Numbered from the stretch's first letter, positions 3,514-49,439 are shown. The stretch is 64,000 bases of DNA from Escherichia coli (GCF_003790525.1 NZ_CP033635.1), one strand, 5' to 3'. Numbers and translations: made by a program. Notes: generated from the letters alone by a model not told the origin.

Positions 3514-4677
3514 ATGGCTAGAGTCTCTCTTTCATGGGCATTGATTCTTGGTCTTTTAGCCGGTATCGGCCCGATGTGTACCGATCTTTATTTGCCGGCT
3601 TTGCCGGAGATGTCTGAGCAACTGGCGGCAACCACGACCATAACGCAATTAACCCTGACCGCATCACTGATTGGTCTTGGCGTCGGACAACTGTTATTTG
3701 GCCCTCTGAGCGACAAAATAGGGCGTAAACGTCCGTTAATCTTGTCGTTGCTATTGTTTATTGTTTCTTCCATTTTGTGCGCGACAACGAACAATATTTA
3801 CTGGCTGGTGGTCTGGCGTTTTATTCAAGGGATCGCGGGGGCGGGTGGTTCGGTGCTCTCTCGTTCTATTGCTCGTGACAAATATCAGGGAGTAACGTTG
3901 ACCCAGTTTTTTGCGCTGTTAATGACGGTGAATGGCCTGGCACCGGTGTTGTCGCCAGTGCTGGGCGGGTACATTGTTAGCACTTTTGACTGGCGCACTT
4001 TATTCTGGGTAATGGCTGAAATTAGCACCGTACTGTTGCTGGGCTGCCTGTTATTTATTAATGAGACCTTGCCAGAAAATAAAAGGGGCTCATCATTGCT
4101 ATTAACCGGACGAAGCGTGGTGCAGAACCGCCGTTTTATGCGCTTTTGCCTGATTCAAAGTTTTATGCTGGCCGGTTTGTTTGCATATATCGGCTCTTCG
4201 TCGTTCGTGTTGCAGAAGGAATTTGGCTTTAGTCCAATGCAATTTAGCCTGGTGTTTGGCCTTAACGGCATCGGACTTATCATTGCTTCATGGATCTTCT
4301 CGCGCCTGGCGCGACGGATTAACGCGATGACATTGTTGCGAGGTGGCCTGATAGCGGCAATTTTGTGTGCATTGCTCACGGTCTTATGCGCATGGACACA
4401 ATTGCCCATTCCGGCACTGGTGGCATTATTTTTCACCATCGCATTTTGTAGCGGCATCGGCACTGTTGGCGGGGCAGAGGCTATGAGTGCAGTAGGGACG
4501 CAGGAATCTGGAACGGCGTCTGCGTTGATGGGGATGAGCATGTTTGTCTTCGGCGGTATAGCCGCGCCATTGTCGGGAATTGGCGGAGAAACACTGTTAA
4601 AAATGAGTCTGGCAATTACGGTGTGTTATACGCTGGCATTGCTGGTTGCTCTCACCAGAATCGACAATCAAAAGTAA
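3514..4677 (+). CDS. MFS drug-efflux transporter (Bcr/CflA-like)
   Basis: 387-aa ORF, AAGGA RBS, about 12 hydrophobic segments, MFS motif region GPLSDKIGRKRPL; co-directional with the upstream efflux genes. Confidence 0.75.
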   Translation: MARVSLSWALILGLLAGIGPMCTDLYLPALPEMSEQLAATTTITQLTLTASLIGLGVGQLLFGPLSDKIGRKRPLILSLLLFIVSSILCATTNNIYWLVVWRFIQGIAGAGGSVLSRSIARDKYQGVTLTQFFALLMTVNGLAPVLSPVLGGYIVSTFDWRTLFWVMAEISTVLLLGCLLFINETLPENKRGSSLLLTGRSVVQNRRFMRFCLIQSFMLAGLFAYIGSSSFVLQKEFGFSPMQFSLVFGLNGIGLIIASWIFSRLARRINAMTLLRGGLIAAILCALLTVLCAWTQLPIPALVALFFTIAFCSGIGTVGGAEAMSAVGTQESGTASALMGMSMFVFGGIAAPLSGIGGETLLKMSLAITVCYTLALLVALTRIDNQK

Positions 4678-39362: not shown

Positions 39363-39432
39363 GAAACCTTCCTGCTATTCAAATAGTGTCATATCATCAT
39401 ATTAATTGTTCTTTTTTCAGGTGAAGGTTCCC

Positions 39433-41642: not shown

Positions 41643-42608
41643 ATGAGAACCGTTAAGGTATTTGAGGAGGCCTGGCCCTTACATACCCCGTTTGTGATTG
41701 CTCGGGGAAGTCGCAGTGAAGCGCGCGTGGTGGTGGTTGAACTGGAAGAAGAAGGTATTAAAGGCACCGGTGAATGCACGCCGTATCCGCGTTATGGAGA
41801 AAGTGATGCCTCGGTAATGGCGCAAATTATGAGCGTCGTGCCGCAATTAGAGAAAGGGCTGACACGGGAGGAGTTGCAAAAAATCCTCCCTGCCGGCGCA
41901 GCACGTAATGCGCTGGATTGTGCATTGTGGGATCTGGCGGCGCGAAAACAGCAGCAATCGCTGGCTGCTTTGATCGGCATAACGCTTCCCGAGACAGTCA
42001 CCACGGCACAGACGATAGTCATCGGTACGCCTGATCAGATGGCCAATAGTGCATCAACACTCTGGCAGGCAGGCGCGAAATTACTGAAAGTGAAGCTGGA
42101 TAACCATCTTATCAGTGAGCGGATGGTGGCAATTCGCACCGCTGTGCCCGATGCGACGCTGATCGTTGATGCAAATGAATCCTGGCGTGCAGAAGGGTTG
42201 GCGGCGCGTTGCCAGCTATTGGCAGATTTAGGCGTTGCGATGCTTGAACAACCGCTTTCTGCGCAGGACGATGCGGCGCTGGAGAATTTTATTCATCCGT
42301 TACCGATTTGTGCTGATGAAAGTTGTCATACTCGTAGCAATCTGAAGGCGCTGAAAGGGCGCTATGAGATGGTTAACATTAAGCTTGATAAAACCGGTGG
42401 TCTGACGGAAGCGCTGGCGCTGGCGACTGAAGCGCGTGCACAAGGTTTTCGTCTGATGCTGGGCTGCATGTTGTGTACCTCTCGTGCCATTAGCGCCGCT
42501 TTACCGCTGGTGCCGCAGGTCAGTTTCGCCGATCTTGACGGACCGACCTGGCTGGCGGTAGATGTGGAACCGGCGCTTCAGTTCACGACGGGCGAATTGC
42601 ATCTTTAG
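41643..42608 (+). CDS. ycjG: L-Ala-D/L-Glu epimerase YcjG (enolase superfamily)
   Basis: Start set at MRTVKVFEE (321 aa). Confidence 0.88.
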   Translation: MRTVKVFEEAWPLHTPFVIARGSRSEARVVVVELEEEGIKGTGECTPYPRYGESDASVMAQIMSVVPQLEKGLTREELQKILPAGAARNALDCALWDLAARKQQQSLAALIGITLPETVTTAQTIVIGTPDQMANSASTLWQAGAKLLKVKLDNHLISERMVAIRTAVPDATLIVDANESWRAEGLAARCQLLADLGVAMLEQPLSAQDDAALENFIHPLPICADESCHTRSNLKALKGRYEMVNIKLDKTGGLTEALALATEARAQGFRLMLGCMLCTSRAISAALPLVPQVSFADLDGPTWLAVDVEPALQFTTGELHL

Positions 42609-43311: not shown

Positions 43312-43406
43312 GATCGTCTCTGGTTCAGGAAGTATTACAGGCAGTGTTGTGCAAATTTTGCGGATTATCAAATCCTTTTCTTCAACGCTATGTTATCGAT
43401 CTTGTA

Positions 43407-43431
43407 TCACTTTTTTGATGGAAGTTGTTTG
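43407..43431. promoter_or_regulatory. 25-bp motif, copy 1, upstream of mpaA
   Basis: TCACTTTTTTGATGGAAGTTGTTTG, identical to 46518-46542. Confidence 0.5.
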
Positions 43432-43557
43432 TATTTTCATTGATGTGCAGATATTAGAATTGTCGTAATGTTATATACATGGCGTATTTTATTCTTACTG
43501 GTTCTACACATGTTAATCGCATCTGATTGATCAGTTCACCTTAATAAGTTTAATAAA

Positions 43558-43582
43558 TCGTACTGCACATAGTACAGTACGA
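43558..43582 (-). terminator. Hairpin 3' of ymjC-like gene (probable operon terminator)
   Basis: 8-bp arms TCGTACTG/CAGTACGA with 9-nt loop, about 20 bp after the stop, followed on the minus strand by an A/U-rich tract. Confidence 0.4.
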
Positions 43583-43601
43583 TGGTAGCTATATAATTGA
43601 T

Positions 43602-44240
43602 TTACATGAAGAAGGGCTTATCACCATCAGTCCCGGGTTGATTGATGCCTATATTCTCACCAATGTGTTTCTCAGGTTTATCGATGATATCTGTGATTAA
43701 TGCTGCGACACTCTTACGTGATACGATCGTACCTTTGAATGGTTCATTGCGTGAGGTAAGCTCATAATCAATAATATCTTCATCAGTCAGCCAGGCAGGG
43801 CGAAGAATTGTATATTCCAGTCCAGAAGCCTCAATTGCATCCGCAGCCCTGCGGAATGGTTTTAGGGGTTCACCAATAACTGCATTATTCCATTCGCCAA
43901 ATTTTCCTGGAACTTCATCATAAATACCGAGGGAAAGAACAAAGATCAGACGTTTAACATCACAGGCTTTCATCGCAGCGATCACTGAATTTGCCTGAAT
44001 ATCTAAATCTTCCCCCGTAAGGTTGGCATACACAACATCCTGTCCCTGCATGGCCTGCTTCAGTGCTGCATGATTCAGTACATCCCCCATAATAATCTTG
44101 CTATTAGTTGGATAGGGTTTGTGGATTTTTGCTGGCTGACGGGCAAATAAAGTTTGTTTAATGGTTTGTTTATCTGCCAGTTGATTAATCACATGGCGGG
44201 CTATCTGACCGCCAGCACCAAGAATCAGTATATTTTTCAT
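43602..44240 (-). CDS. NAD(P)-binding NmrA/SDR-like protein (ymjC-like), intact
   Basis: 212-aa ORF with Rossmann motif ILGAGGQIA. Confidence 0.75.
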   Translation of the reverse strand: MKNILILGAGGQIARHVINQLADKQTIKQTLFARQPAKIHKPYPTNSKIIMGDVLNHAALKQAMQGQDVVYANLTGEDLDIQANSVIAAMKACDVKRLIFVLSLGIYDEVPGKFGEWNNAVIGEPLKPFRRAADAIEASGLEYTILRPAWLTDEDIIDYELTSRNEPFKGTIVSRKSVAALITDIIDKPEKHIGENIGINQPGTDGDKPFFM

Positions 44241-44311
44241 GAAACTTTTCCCAGATTATTGGCAGCAATATGCCAGGCCATATCACTATTACGGATTTGA
44301 ATATGTTTCAT
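44237..44311 (-). CDS. Candidate 24-codon bridging ORF between ycjY and ymjC-like gene
   Basis: ATG overlaps ycjY stop (TAATG); its TGA overlaps the ymjC-like ATG (ATGA); peptide MKHIQIRNSDMAWHIAANNLGKVS. Sequence-only inference. Confidence 0.3.
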   Translation of the reverse strand: MKHIQIRNSDMAWHIAANNLGKVS

Positions 44312-45231
44312 TACAGAGTTTCCTCAAAGAACGGAGCTAATACTGAAATTGCTTCAGCCACATAGACTTTGCCGTCATAAAGATCCATATGGTTTGCGCC
44401 TTCAACAATGTGATAGCGTTTATCCTTGCTTGATGCTCGATCGTACAGGTCGTCACTCATCCATTTGCTCCCAGCCTGGCTGCCCGCCACAATCTGTATC
44501 GGCTGAGTCAGGTACACTTCCGCCATATGGTAAGCATCATAGGTAATAATCTGGTTAAGGCTGCGCAAAGTAGCGTAACCCGGTGCTGTTGGATACTGCG
44601 CGCGAGGGGTGTGGTAATACTCCCAGGCCTGACGCAGTTCTTCGTTCGGCGCATCGGACTCCTTCATTGGTGCCAGTGGCATAGTGGCGTATTCTCCGCT
44701 GCTAATATCGCTGGTTCGGGCGTCTGAACCCGCGTCAACGTATGGTAGGGCATCAATAGATTTCACATTGTTTTCCCAACCATTACGGAACATCGAACCA
44801 ATATTGACCGCACTAACAGTACCGATGGCCTTGATGCGGCGATCCTGAATTGCAGCATTGGCTGTATATCCTGCTCCGGCACAAATTCCCATCGCACCAA
44901 TTCGGGTATTGTCGACATAAGAAAGCGTTGTCAGGTAATCAATCACGGCACTGACGTCTTCAGTACGAATGTATGGGTTTTCTAACTGACGCGGCTCGCC
45001 GCCGCTTTCACCTTGATAAGATGCGTCATAAGCAATAGTGACAAATCCCTTTTCCGCCAGTTTTTCGGCATAGGTTCCGGCCGTTTGCTCTTTAACGCCC
45101 CCACCTGGGTGAGATACCACAATTACCGGATACTGACGGGTTTCATCAAATTTTGGAGGGAAATAGATCACTGCAGACAAAGAGATGGTTGGATTATTGC
45201 TGTTAGTGAAGCTGACTTTATTATTCATCAT
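44311..45231 (-). CDS. ycjY: Alpha/beta-hydrolase YcjY
   Basis: Start set at MMNNKVSF (306 aa) with AGGAA upstream; nucleophile elbow GICAG. Confidence 0.82.
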   Translation of the reverse strand: MMNNKVSFTNSNNPTISLSAVIYFPPKFDETRQYPVIVVSHPGGGVKEQTAGTYAEKLAEKGFVTIAYDASYQGESGGEPRQLENPYIRTEDVSAVIDYLTTLSYVDNTRIGAMGICAGAGYTANAAIQDRRIKAIGTVSAVNIGSMFRNGWENNVKSIDALPYVDAGSDARTSDISSGEYATMPLAPMKESDAPNEELRQAWEYYHTPRAQYPTAPGYATLRSLNQIITYDAYHMAEVYLTQPIQIVAGSQAGSKWMSDDLYDRASSKDKRYHIVEGANHMDLYDGKVYVAEAISVLAPFFEETL

Positions 45232-45301
45232 TCCGTTCCTCATGGAGTTGTCGGTTCGTTTTAACGGTTGGTGATATCACTATAGATATTGATCATTAAG
45301 T

Positions 45302-45346
45302 TGATTAGACCCAAAATCATGATTAGACCTATCATTTAAATGATTA
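45302..45346. promoter_or_regulatory. Direct TGATTA(GACC) repeats in divergent ycjY-ycjZ promoter
   Basis: TGATTAGACC at 45302 and 45320, TGATTA at 45341 (18-21 bp spacing); typical position for a LysR-type operator. Confidence 0.35.
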
Positions 45347-45368
45347 ATAGATTGTATGGAGATACTGA

Positions 45369-46268
45369 ATGAAGCGTGAAGAAATCGCTGATCTGATGGC
45401 GTTTGTCGTTGTTGCAGAGGAGCGTAGCTTCACTCGCGCAGCAGCCCGCCTGAGCATGGCGCAGTCAGCTTTAAGCCAGATAGTGCGCCGTATAGAAGAA
45501 CGATTGGGATTGCGGCTTCTGACGCGAACCACGCGCAGCGTTGTACCCACTGAAGCGGGCGAGCATCTTTTGTCTGTTCTTGGCCCTATGTTGCATGACA
45601 TAGATTCTGCCCTGACATCCCTGAGCGATCTGCAGAACCGCCCATCCGGGACAATACGTATTACTACTGTAGAACATGCAGCAAAAACGATATTGTTACC
45701 AGCTATGCGCACATTCCTGAAATCGCATCCTGAAATTGATATTCAGCTTACCATTGATTATGGTTTGACCGATGTCGTTTCTGAACGTTTTGATGCAGGC
45801 GTCCGTCTGGGTGGGGAGATGGATAAAGATATGATCGCCATTCGAATCGGGCCAGACATACCAATGGCTATTGTTGGCTCACCGGATTATTTTTCTCGTC
45901 GAAGTGCTCCAACGTCAGTGTCACAATTAATAGATCATCAGGCAATTAATTTGTATCTTCCCACATCGGGTACAGCAAATCGCTGGAGATTAATACGCGG
46001 TGGACGTGAAGTTCGTGTTCGCATGGAAGGTCAGCTTTTACTGAATACGATAGACCTGATCATTGATGCTGCAATTGATGGGCATGGATTGGCGTATCTA
46101 CCTTATGATCAGGTTGAGCGGGCTATTAAAGAAAAAAAACTGATACGTGTTTTGGATAAATTCACACCAGATTTACCCGGTTATCACCTGTACTATCCAC
46201 ACCGTCGACATGCTGGCTCGGCATTCTCATTATTTATAGATAGGCTGAAGTATAAAGGTGCTGTTTAG
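45369..46268 (+). CDS. ycjZ: LysR-family regulator YcjZ
   Basis: 299-aa ORF with N-terminal LysR HTH (SFTRAAARLSMAQSALSQ). Confidence 0.88.
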   Translation: MKREEIADLMAFVVVAEERSFTRAAARLSMAQSALSQIVRRIEERLGLRLLTRTTRSVVPTEAGEHLLSVLGPMLHDIDSALTSLSDLQNRPSGTIRITTVEHAAKTILLPAMRTFLKSHPEIDIQLTIDYGLTDVVSERFDAGVRLGGEMDKDMIAIRIGPDIPMAIVGSPDYFSRRSAPTSVSQLIDHQAINLYLPTSGTANRWRLIRGGREVRVRMEGQLLLNTIDLIIDAAIDGHGLAYLPYDQVERAIKEKKLIRVLDKFTPDLPGYHLYYPHRRHAGSAFSLFIDRLKYKGAV

Positions 46269-46517: not shown

Positions 46518-46542
46518 TCACTTTTTTGATGGAAGTTGTTTG
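46518..46542. promoter_or_regulatory. 25-bp motif, copy 2, upstream of mppA
   Basis: TCACTTTTTTGATGGAAGTTGTTTG, 63-87 bp upstream of mppA ATG. Confidence 0.5.
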
Positions 46543-46604: not shown

Positions 46605-48218
46605 ATGAAGCACTCTGTTTCAGTCACGTGTTGTGTGCTGTTGGTCAGCAGCATTTCTCTTTCGTATGCTGCTGAAGTTCCGAGCGGCACAGTACTGGCA
46701 GAGAAGCAGGAGCTGGTGCGCCACATTAAAGATGAGCCAGCGTCGCTGGATCCCGCTAAAGCCGTGGGCCTGCCGGAGATTCAGGTCATTCGCGATCTGT
46801 TTGAAGGACTGGTGAATCAGAACGAGAAAGGGGAGATTGTCCCCGGCGTTGCGACTCAGTGGAAAAGTAATGACAGCCGTATCTGGACTTTTACCCTGCG
46901 CGATAACGCAAAATGGGCGGATGGCACACCGGTAACGGCGCAAGATTTTGTCTACAGCTGGCAACGTCTGGTGGACCCGAAAACGCTATCGCCATTTGCA
47001 TGGTTTGCCGCGCTGGCGGGAATCAACAACGCACAGGCGATTATTGATGGTAAAGCCACGCCTGACCAGCTTGGCGTCACCGCAGTTGATGCCCATACTT
47101 TGAAAATCCAGCTTGATAAACCATTGCCGTGGTTTGTGAATTTAACCGCTAACTTTGCCTTCTTCCCGGTGCAAAAAGCCAACGTAGAAAGCAGTAAAGA
47201 GTGGACGAAACCCGGAAATCTGATCGGCAATGGCGCTTATGTTCTTAAAGAGCGCGTAGTCAATGAAAAACTGGTCGTAGTGCCGAATACCCATTATTGG
47301 GATAACGCCAAAACGGTACTGCAAAAAGTGACCTTCCTGCCAATTAATCAGGAATCCGCAGCCACTAAGCGTTATCTCGCGGGGGATATTGATATCACCG
47401 AATCCTTCCCGAAAAATATGTATCAGAAGTTGTTGAAGGATATTCCGGGGCAGGTTTATACGCCGCCGCAGCTCGGGACCTATTATTATGCGTTTAACAC
47501 GCAAAAAGGGCCGACGGCAGATCAGCGCGTTCGCCTGGCATTAAGTATGACGATAGATCGCCGCCTGATGACCGAAAAAGTGTTGGGGACGGGCGAAAAG
47601 CCAGCGTGGCATTTTACACCAGATGTTACCGCGGGATTTACGCCGGAACCTTCGCCGTTTGAACAAATGAGTCAGGAAGAACTGAATGCGCAGGCAAAAA
47701 CTTTGTTGAGCGCAGCTGGTTATGGTCCGCAAAAACCGCTGAAGTTGACGCTTTTGTATAACACTTCAGAAAACCATCAAAAAATTGCGATTGCTGTAGC
47801 ATCGATGTGGAAAAAGAACCTGGGCGTAGATGTTAAATTGCAAAACCAGGAATGGAAAACCTATATCGATAGCCGTAATACCGGCAATTTTGATGTTATC
47901 CGCGCCTCGTGGGTAGGGGATTATAATGACCCCTCCACTTTCCTGACATTATTAACGTCAACGCATTCCGGGAATATTTCACGCTTTAACAATCCGGCAT
48001 ATGACAAAGTTCTGGCCCAGGCATCGACGGAAAATACCGTTAAAGCGCGTAATGCCGATTACAACGCGGCAGAAAAAATCCTCATGGAGCAAGCACCGAT
48101 TGCACCAATTTATCAATATACCAATGGACGATTAATCAAGCCGTGGCTGAAAGGTTATCCCATTAATAACCCTGAAGATGTGGCGTACAGTCGGACTATG
48201 TATATTGTGAAGCATTGA
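46605..48218 (+). CDS. mppA: Periplasmic murein tripeptide-binding protein MppA
   Basis: Start set at MKHSVSVT (537 aa) with GAGGGAA RBS; signal peptide; OppA-like. Confidence 0.9.
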   Translation: MKHSVSVTCCVLLVSSISLSYAAEVPSGTVLAEKQELVRHIKDEPASLDPAKAVGLPEIQVIRDLFEGLVNQNEKGEIVPGVATQWKSNDSRIWTFTLRDNAKWADGTPVTAQDFVYSWQRLVDPKTLSPFAWFAALAGINNAQAIIDGKATPDQLGVTAVDAHTLKIQLDKPLPWFVNLTANFAFFPVQKANVESSKEWTKPGNLIGNGAYVLKERVVNEKLVVVPNTHYWDNAKTVLQKVTFLPINQESAATKRYLAGDIDITESFPKNMYQKLLKDIPGQVYTPPQLGTYYYAFNTQKGPTADQRVRLALSMTIDRRLMTEKVLGTGEKPAWHFTPDVTAGFTPEPSPFEQMSQEELNAQAKTLLSAAGYGPQKPLKLTLLYNTSENHQKIAIAVASMWKKNLGVDVKLQNQEWKTYIDSRNTGNFDVIRASWVGDYNDPSTFLTLLTSTHSGNISRFNNPAYDKVLAQASTENTVKARNADYNAAEKILMEQAPIAPIYQYTNGRLIKPWLKGYPINNPEDVAYSRTMYIVKH

Positions 48219-48268: not shown

Positions 48269-49300
48269 TTAGCGACCCTGGTCCGGCGGTGTAATGTTAT
48301 CCATATACAGCGTCTGGCTGGGGAAGGCAAAGTCCGCACCGTGTGACTGTACAATATCGATAATCTTCAAATAAACGTCTTGCTGTGCAGCAAGCCACTC
48401 AGCCCATACCGTGGTTTTGGTAAAGCAATAAACCATAATATTTAATGACGAATCAGCAAACTGGTTGAAATAAACCAGTAAGGTTTGTCGCTGGTCGATG
48501 GCCGGGTGATTTTTCAGCATCTCACGTACGGCTTCGACAATAACGCCCACTTTTGCCGCATCCTCATAACGTAAACCAATGGTCGTGGTAATGCGCCGGT
48601 TGGTCATTCGTCCAGGATTTTCTACGCTGATCGACGAAAACAGCGAGTTCGGTACGTACAATGGACGATTATCAAAGGTCTTAATTTTGGTAATTCGCCA
48701 GCCAATTTCCGCTACTGTACCTTCGATATTTCTGTCCGGTGAACGGATCCAGTCGCCAATACTGAAAGGACGGTCGAAATAGAGCATAATCCCGGAAAAG
48801 AAGTTACTCAGAATATCTTTACCGGCCATACCGACAGCCAGACCACCAATACCACCAAAGGTCAACAAGCCAGAAAGGCTCATGCCGAAATGTTCGCCAT
48901 AAAGCAGAACAAGCACCACAATAATGGTGATTTTGATAATGCGCGACATGATCCGCGCACTGGTGATATCGCGACCTTTTTTAATCTGCTGTTTTTCAAA
49001 CTGATTAATCAGCAGAAATAGCTTAATCGTCAGAATAACCGCAATCAGGGACGTACAGATAAAATCGATAACGCCTGGGGTGATAAATTTGAGTTTATAG
49101 TTTTCTATAACATAGTTAATGATGCTACCAACAGCACTAATAATTATGGTGTAGATTAAAAATTGCACCGCATGGAATAAAAATCCTTTTCTTTTACGAT
49201 TTCCACGGCGAAACCAAAAGCTCATCAGAATCAATGCTGCGCAGCTACCGAAAATAATGACCAGATTAAGCGCATTATTTGTAAACAGTTCAGCGATCAT
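48269..49300 (-). CDS. ynaI: Small-conductance mechanosensitive channel YnaI (MscS family)
   Basis: 343-aa ORF with N-terminal TM helices and MscS-like C-terminal domain. Confidence 0.9.
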
Positions 49301-49423: not shown

Positions 49424-49439
49424 AATCAATGCATTGATT
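49424..49439. promoter_or_regulatory. Perfect 16-bp palindrome in divergent ynaI-ynaJ region
   Basis: AATCAATGCATTGATT; about 105 bp upstream of ynaJ, about 125 bp upstream of ynaI. Confidence 0.4.

Follow-up and report, generated by a model that had tools for sequence, protein, structure and literature searches.

The window, meaning the whole stretch of 64,000 nucleotides of Escherichia coli DNA that was analysed (GCF_003790525.1, NZ_CP033635.1), carries the LysR-type regulator gene ycjZ and, divergent from it, the ycjY operon. The region is 100% identical to E. coli SMS-3-5, where the regulator gene is annotated as pgrR. Its 299-aa product contains an HTH_1 domain (PF00126, E = 1.6e-21) and a LysR_substrate domain (PF03466, E = 1.5e-35), and among solved structures the sequences closest to PgrR are 3mz1, an unnamed putative regulator, and the LysR-family entries 3szp/3t1b and 3hhg, not BenM. 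The ycjY product matches PDB 5xb6, an entry named 'Uncharacterized protein YcjY'. Downstream of ycjY lies an intact gene for an SDR-type oxidoreductase, which corresponds to the truncated ymjC/ymjD remnant of K-12. A LysR-family gene thus both adjoins ycjY and is divergent to it, which is the arrangement looked for when a LysR-type operator is proposed. All features are collected in Table 1.

Table 1. Features of the ycjG-mppA region, in coordinates of the window.
Feature	Position	Strand	Basis or remark
ycjG	41643-42608	+	RefSeq
mpaA	42583-43311	-	RefSeq
Left 25-bp motif TCACTTTTTTGATGGAAGTTGTTTG, left cassette edge	43407-43431	+	
SDR/NAD(P)H-binding oxidoreductase gene, intact, last cassette gene	43602-44240	-	RefSeq, domains
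ycjY, alpha/beta hydrolase, first gene of the divergent operon	44311-45231	-	RefSeq, domains
Regulatory block, 71 bp, whole operator and both core promoters	45279-45349		no indels in aligned sequences
Candidate ycjY -10, TATAGT	45279-45284	-	position inferred; predicts ycjY start near 45272
Further ATCA-N6-TGAT dyad ATCATTAAGTTGAT, overlapping copy 1	45292-45305		only ATT (45295-97) invariant
TGATTAGACC, copy 1	45302-45311	+	holds invariant GATTAGA; putative left half of the promoter-proximal dyad
Second dyad, GATTA-N6-aAATC	45303-45318		proposed activation/repression site (ABS)
Predicted sigma-70 pgrR promoter, TAGACC-18-TATCAT	45306-45335	+	promoter scan; same hexamers in PMC3946193
TGATTAGACC, copy 2	45320-45329	+	within the spacer of the predicted pgrR promoter; least conserved copy
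Perfect 14-bp palindrome ATCATTTAAATGAT (ATCA-N6-TGAT)	45331-45344		proposed primary recognition site (RBS)
TGATTA, copy 3	45341-45346	+	putative right half-site of the perfect palindrome
pgrR (= ycjZ), LysR-type regulator	45369-46268	+	RefSeq, domains
Right copy of TCACTTTTTTGATGGAAGTTGTTTG, right cassette edge	46518-46542	+	62-87 bp upstream of the mppA start codon
mppA	46605-48218	+	RefSeq

The 137-bp spacer between the two divergent genes (45231 to 45369) holds three TGATTA copies whose starts are 18 and 21 bp apart; two of these are extended to exact plus-strand matches of TGATTAGACC, and the stretch 45300-45350 reads gtTGATTAGACCcaaaatcaTGATTAGACCtatcatttaaaTGATTAatag. The coordinates as well as the location between two genes on opposite strands were given correctly in the first-pass annotation. 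Dinucleotide-preserving shuffles of the spacer sequence (n = 5000) produced an exact, non-overlapping direct repeat of at least 10 nt in 64 cases (approximately 1.3%) and any hexamer three times within 45 bp in 65 cases. TGATTA is a common word with 66 copies in the window, and TGATTAGACC has no further match at 0 or 1 mismatch elsewhere in the window. The repeat pattern is unusual by shuffling, yet on its own it is not overwhelming.

YcjZ was reportedly renamed PgrR by Shimada, Yamazaki and Ishihama in 2013 (Genes Cells 18:123), where it is said to exert 'switch control of peptidoglycan recycling'. Genomic SELEX peaks for PgrR include ycjY/ycjZ, and the RegulonDB regulon consists of ycjG, ycjXF-tyrR and ycjY-ymjDC-mpaA (PMC5934670), the last of which is entered in RegulonDB as repressed by PgrR. 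The pgrR promoter is derepressed on knock-down of pgrR (+0.97 log2), as confirmed by titration of the regulator in a tunable strain, and the same paper mentions a known PgrR site on this promoter (PMC10505187). According to its supplement, the DAP-seq peak of PgrR at the pgrR promoter amounts to 5632-fold (LacI at lacZYA: 4413-fold). The knock-down raises the ycjY-ymjDC-mpaA promoter by 0.28-0.60 log2, which the authors did not class as a response, and the ycjG promoter by 0.49-1.0; ycjXF-tyrR shows none (PMC10505187 supplement). Binding of PgrR to the spacer in vitro and autorepression of pgrR have been shown by others. Since ycjZ is a published regulator with reported binding at this very place, the core interpretation of the first-pass annotation (a LysR-type operator for YcjZ in the ycjY-ycjZ spacer) is correct but already established, through SELEX and DAP-seq peaks and negative autoregulation.

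To see which bases matter within the spacer, conservation is more informative than repetition. We aligned 11 orthologous spacers from Escherichia, Citrobacter, Kluyvera, Pseudocitrobacter, Shimwellia, three Serratia-labelled isolates and one metagenome-assembled genome, the regulators of which are 85-99% identical. In the 71-bp block 50 of 71 positions are invariant (10-11 sequences, at least six genera), against 6 of 35 in the flank on the ycjY side (45244-78) and 0 of 19 in the pgrR leader (45350-68). The 70-bp operator sequence is identical in a K-12-type genome. Among plasmid records, the divergent pair turned up on Klebsiella plasmids as well and, with 68-70% identical DNA, on plasmids from Rhizobium tropici, Agrobacterium fabrum and Kozakia baliensis. 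The regulators of these three are 69-73% identical to PgrR and have an identical recognition helix (QSALSQIVRR). When the alphaproteobacterial spacers are aligned with the enterobacterial ones, no indel interrupts the stretch that begins at the -10-like element and ends with the regulator-proximal palindrome.

Invariant across both classes are TAG (45283-85), ATT (45295-97), GATTAGA (45303-09), AAT (45315-17), G45326, C45328, TATCA (45330-34) and TGAT (45341-44). These blocks recur mostly every 10-11 bp, so that most of them would lie on one face of the helix. Conservation of the 71-bp block is, as judged from the alignment, the decisive evidence against chance repeats. What the present analysis shows in this way is which bases and spacings appear to be under selection.

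The invariant positions are for the most part covered by two dyads. In the palindrome ATCATTTAAATGAT the outer four pairs (ATCA/TGAT) are symmetric in 8 of 8 sequences and the central 6 bp vary; it corresponds to T-N10-A, one base below the textbook T-N11-A. The core pairs of the second dyad (ATT/AAT) are likewise symmetric in 8 of 8. Its Kozakia version reads GGATTA-N6-TAATCC and its cross-class form GATTA-N6-TAATC, and both dyads follow the common pattern AT(C/T)A-N6-T(G/A)AT. In each of the eight aligned sequences, 27 bp separate the dyad centres. If the partners are slid by 1-3 columns, symmetry drops from 90% to 15-58%. Covariation is not seen because the half-sites of the dyads never vary.

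This bears on the description of the motifs as phased direct repeats. Under that description three TGATTA(GACC) copies, 18-21 bp apart, would each bind one regulator subunit; the three hexamers are indeed exact and on the same strand, and copies 1 and 3 are invariant across genera (GATTAGA in copy 1 is unchanged in 8 sequences, including the alphaproteobacterial plasmids). Copy 2, however, is poorly conserved across classes: it reads TGATTGGACT in 7 of 9 aligned non-Escherichia sequences and TTATTAGGCC, CGCTTGGCCT or GTCATGGCCC in Alphaproteobacteria, with G45326 and C45328 as its only invariant positions. The GACC extension is common to two copies only and exact only in Escherichia, such that the 10-mer identity of copies 1 and 2 is Escherichia-specific. 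Furthermore, a spacing of 18 bp is not a whole number of helical turns, and a conserved inverted partner lies 10-11 bp from every conserved TGAT or GATTA. In the LysR family the DNA-binding domains come together as two-fold symmetric dimers, which also counts against direct repeats. We therefore regard this model as improbable. The hexamers are real, but 'phased direct' is not their best description, the conserved units being the two dyads. On the alignment the repeats appear better read as half-sites of two-fold symmetric sites, in which copy 1 would supply the left half-site of the second dyad and copy 3 the right one of the palindrome, copy 2 being the weakly conserved stretch in between.

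Other symmetric elements in and near the block were considered and set aside. The further dyad that overlaps copy 1 (45292-45305) has 59% of its cells symmetric and is kept in part of the Enterobacterales, not in Alphaproteobacteria. For an ATGAT-N7-ATCAT dyad (45319-35) 72% of the cells are symmetric, and it is not kept across classes. The short palindrome AATCATGATT (45315-24) was rejected as a third dyad: it is E. coli-specific and lacks the N6 spacing, and it is not retained in 7 of 9 other enterobacterial sequences, most of which read AATAATGATT.

Perfect palindromes also occur elsewhere. In a more distant relative of the pair, from an uncultured gammaproteobacterium (L010), the regulator gene is preceded by a perfect 14-bp palindrome of another sequence, TTGTTAATTAACAA (3949-3962); the regulator is 58% and the hydrolase 74% identical, and the recognition helix has IMQR versus IVRR. 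Within the window, the ynaI-ynaJ spacer holds a perfect 16-bp palindrome, AATCAATGCATTGATT (49424-49439), in the same ATCA-N6-TGAT frame as the PgrR palindrome; ynaI and ynaJ are absent from the published genomic SELEX targets of PgrR. The palindrome TGATTAATCA is found twice, in the SDR gene (44182-44191) and in ynaI (49002-49011), probably by chance in AT-rich codons.

Another question concerns the promoters in the block. For K-12, TAGACC-18-TATCAT is listed for pgrR and ATGATA-19-TCTAAT for ycjY, both as constitutive RpoD promoters (PMC3946193). In a different source, which cites the 2013 PgrR paper, the promoters of pgrR and ycjY are described as known to depend on sigma-E (PMC5493296); inspection of the spacer by eye yielded no sigma-E type match with proper spacing. 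Our own candidate for the ycjY -10, TATAGT, is part of ACTATAG, which is invariant in 11 enterobacterial sequences and of which the last three bases (TAG, 45283-85) do not vary in either class; in place of TATAGT, TAGATT or TACCAT is found at equal distance in the alphaproteobacterial copies. The predicted ycjY -35 (TAATCA) is poor and lies 17 bp upstream of TATAGT, within copy 1. Copy 1 thereby overlaps this element on the opposite strand and the predicted pgrR -35 (TAGACC) as well.

It might be argued that the block is nothing else than two overlapping core promoters placed back to back, with the repeats as their hexamers (TAGACC as a -35 and, on the other strand, TCTAAT as a -10). This agrees with the RpoD entries just mentioned and with the binding of RNA polymerase holoenzymes to the spacer in vitro (PMC5493296). 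Conservation by itself does not tell an operator apart from overlapping elements of core promoters, and the promoter-only and operator readings in fact overlap rather than being mutually exclusive. Nonetheless, the 5632-fold DAP-seq peak and the genomic SELEX peaks of PgrR map to the promoter region, a palindrome with invariant arms and a variable centre is not a promoter feature, and 71 bp without indels across two classes exceeds the need of two promoters. That promoters account for everything is therefore highly improbable.

The motifs could also be sites of another protein, for example H-NS on AT-rich DNA or UlaR. Knock-down of hns raises the ycjY promoter by 0.88 log2 (PPTP-seq supplement, PMC10505187), and UlaR has a 57.5-fold DAP-seq peak at that promoter, accompanied by a response in LB (PMC10505187 supplement). 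The peak of PgrR, however, is approximately 100 times that of UlaR, and in Alphaproteobacteria, too, the block accompanies the regulator gene, the recognition helix there being identical. To our knowledge H-NS sites are not conserved base by base, which counts against H-NS in particular. We give this explanation hardly any credence.

For the operator of PgrR itself, the layout suggests a mechanism. PgrR on the palindrome would sit on the -10 and on the region of the transcript start of pgrR (predicted near 45342) and would in this way shut off its own gene; the overlap of the left half of the palindrome with the predicted pgrR -10 (TATCAT, 45330-35) could explain the reported autorepression. 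The second dyad would overlap the weak -35 of the divergent ycjY promoter. A PgrR tetramer on both sites may span about 55 bp on one helix face and control the ycjY operon, and its coverage of the ycjY -35 would lead to the reported repression. Relative to ycjY the dyad centres would be at -65.5 and -38.5, provided that the predicted -10 (TATAGT) sets the ycjY start near 45272. By analogy with LysR-type regulators, the ycjY operon would be repressed without ligand and possibly activated with ligand. The roles of the two sites, the ycjY transcript start and any ligand-driven switch are inferred, largely from this analogy.

The first-pass annotation had further combined the repeats with a 25-bp motif to suggest a small regulon around murein-peptide processing. 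This motif occurs twice, in the same orientation, and the two direct repeats of 25-30 bp (approximately 30 bp if the following (T/C)ATTT is counted) bound a 3.1-kb block with the SDR gene, ycjY and pgrR. We made a 690-bp construct in silico in which this block and one motif copy were removed. Of 5426 complete E. coli genomes, 173 match the construct in one unbroken alignment of 98-99% identity; strain 2014C-3075 is an example of an empty site. In one empty-site genome the annotation places mpaA and mppA side by side and divergent, with 182 bp between them. The gene order tyrR-tpx-ycjG-mpaA/mppA is also that of Citrobacter and Klebsiella, where the spacer is about 185 bp long and contains one homologous motif copy (ATCACTTTCTTGTCGGAAGTTAATTGCATTTC in Citrobacter), without pgrR at that place. 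The segment bounded by the repeats is thus absent, with one copy left, in related genomes. As Citrobacter and Klebsiella have mpaA next to mppA and only one motif copy between them, the empty site is the ancestral state; within E. coli, precise deletion between the repeats could also yield empty sites.

Judging from these comparisons, the 25-bp motif is a duplicated piece of the old mpaA-mppA spacer, an insertion scar and not a shared operator. The murein-peptide regulon loses its footing accordingly: the motif is unlike the PgrR dyads, flanks the insert and is present as a single copy in empty sites. Searches with ATCATTNNNNTGATTA and TGATTAGACC at up to 2 mismatches gave no match in the 25-bp motif or in the upstream regions of ycjG, mpaA and mppA. 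Across species motif and regulator do not go together either, as is evident from Citrobacter, Klebsiella and the cassettes of other genera. The right copy falls in a region that we read as the mppA promoter, including its -35. The left copy fits ATCA-N6-TGAT (43406-43419) in its GAT allele only; this fit is lost in the GCC allele, which is found in the left copies of K-12 and O157 and in the empty sites.

Strains combine the GAT and GCC alleles of the motif in various ways: both copies carry GAT in the window, and both carry GCC in Escherichia sp. E1V33. Concerted evolution of the copies was considered and rejected, a K-12-type genome and strain MY732 being mixed (GCC left, GAT right). Use of the repeat as an attachment site was rejected too, given that the block has no integrase and that the motif is absent beside cassettes in other genera. 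The gene content of the block is limited to pgrR, ycjY and the SDR gene, with a second hydrolase gene added in some strains; no transposase or integrase gene was found in it, and no terminal inverted repeat of the block was seen by eye. As a separate observation, mppA of E. coli MFDS1019527 is cut after 66 bp and followed by a tyrosine recombinase and phage genes, that is, by a prophage in mppA.

The content of the inserted block differs between strains. O157:H7 and strain MY732 have the full form, in which a second alpha/beta hydrolase gene separates ycjY from the SDR gene; the window strain has lost this gene (site 44241-44253). A K-12-type genome and Escherichia sp. E1V33 are also without 43438-44101 (664 bp), a stretch that takes in the 3' portion of the SDR gene together with the spacer as far as the left repeat, and the ymjC/ymjD remnants result from this deletion. 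The same module, consisting of a LysR regulator divergent from two hydrolases and an SDR in some copies, is found on plasmids in Alpha- and Gammaproteobacteria. Carriers are Rhizobium tropici (pRtrCIAT899a), Agrobacterium fabrum, Kozakia baliensis and Klebsiella aerogenes, and the operator layout is conserved. Integrase or IS21 genes adjoin the plasmid module in two cases; the alphaproteobacterial copies are flanked by integrases or IS elements. In other genera the cassettes are not beside mpaA, mppA or ycjG, and DNA homology to the E. coli cassette ends at gene ends.

These observations suggest that pgrR, the divergent ycjY, the second hydrolase and the SDR gene form a four-gene cassette that travels horizontally. 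An Escherichia ancestor would have taken it into the mpaA-mppA spacer, with duplication of approximately 30 bp. By the insertion mpaA would have come to lie downstream of the ycjY promoter controlled by PgrR, and subsequent deletions (such as the 664 bp in K-12) would have shortened the distance. Overall, we consider it very probable that the repeats are parts of the PgrR operator, with the two dyads as its functional units, and that the four-gene cassette was inserted between mpaA and mppA. One may go a step further and regard PgrR as a local regulator that belongs to a mobile hydrolase/SDR cassette rather than as a dedicated regulator of peptidoglycan recycling, mpaA having been captured by the insertion; towards this we lean only slightly.

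The window was searched for further PgrR-like sites. Nothing convincing in the way of a PgrR-like dyad was found at the ycjG promoter, at ycjX-tyrR or beside mpaA or mppA, the targets published or proposed for PgrR. A loose search for ATYA-N6-TRAT gave 12 matches in the window (4.3 expected); this pattern is AT-rich and the number is not relied on. One of these matches, ATCATCATATTAAT, which fits AT(C/T)A-N6-T(G/A)AT, lies at 39393-39406, 27-40 bp upstream of the tyrR start codon, and may be due to chance. Read-through from the ycjY promoter is the best explanation for any effect that PgrR has on mpaA. Such read-through into mpaA is implied by the K-12 transcription-unit annotation, and a terminator scan found no terminator between the SDR gene and mpaA. 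Control of mpaA by PgrR in E. coli would therefore follow from the place at which the cassette was inserted, through read-through, and not from a shared operator. On the minus strand, just 3' of the SDR stop, a hairpin with a 9-bp stem (ATCGTACTG...CAGTACGAT, 43557-43583) is present without a clear T run; it is missing from K-12-type genomes through the 664-bp deletion and could affect read-through into mpaA.

Summarizing, the operator had already been assigned to PgrR by genomic SELEX, DAP-seq and promoter-perturbation screens, and as a finding in itself it matters little. What is added is a base-level model of the operator, with two putative AT(C/T)A-N6-T(G/A)AT dyads 27 bp apart, and a correction of the 25-bp motif, which is read as duplicated target sequence left by an insertion instead of a shared regulatory site. 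For the curation of regulons some caution is advised: the link of PgrR to murein-peptide genes in E. coli appears due to the insertion place of a mobile cassette, and 3% of the complete E. coli genomes are without PgrR and its operator altogether. If the cassette reading is true, the 'peptidoglycan recycling switch' would be a case of regulatory capture by insertion, and the signal of PgrR would be a substrate of the hydrolase/SDR genes, which is of modest interest.

Compared with PgrR of E. coli K-12, the window has the same gene, the same spacer and an identical operator, and nothing differs in kind. The operator is a known regulator-promoter pair of an ordinary type. Base-level anatomy from cross-class conservation and the finding of the inserted cassette may be additions to the known PgrR site. 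As an insertion with target duplication, the cassette resembles known cases in that direct repeats bound the block and an empty single-copy site exists. Unlike the target duplications of transposons, the duplication is far longer, and transposase, integrase and terminal inverted repeats are lacking.

In classical LysR-type divergent promoters, such as those of BenM/CatM at benA, CbnR and OxyR, a recognition site lies near -65 and an activation site near -35. PgrR is similar to these systems in several respects: the regulator is divergent from its target, a strong dyad lies over its own promoter and would give autorepression, a weaker dyad would lie over a poor predicted -35 of the target, and the span of approximately 55 bp would be on one helical face. 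Should ycjY start near 45272, the predicted centres of -65.5 and -38.5 would correspond to this classical arrangement. In contrast to the BenM/CatM type, the dyads of PgrR have the form ATCA-N6-TGAT (14 bp) instead of ATAC-N7-GTAT or T-N11-A; their centre-to-centre distance is 27 bp, and PgrR is described as a repressor.
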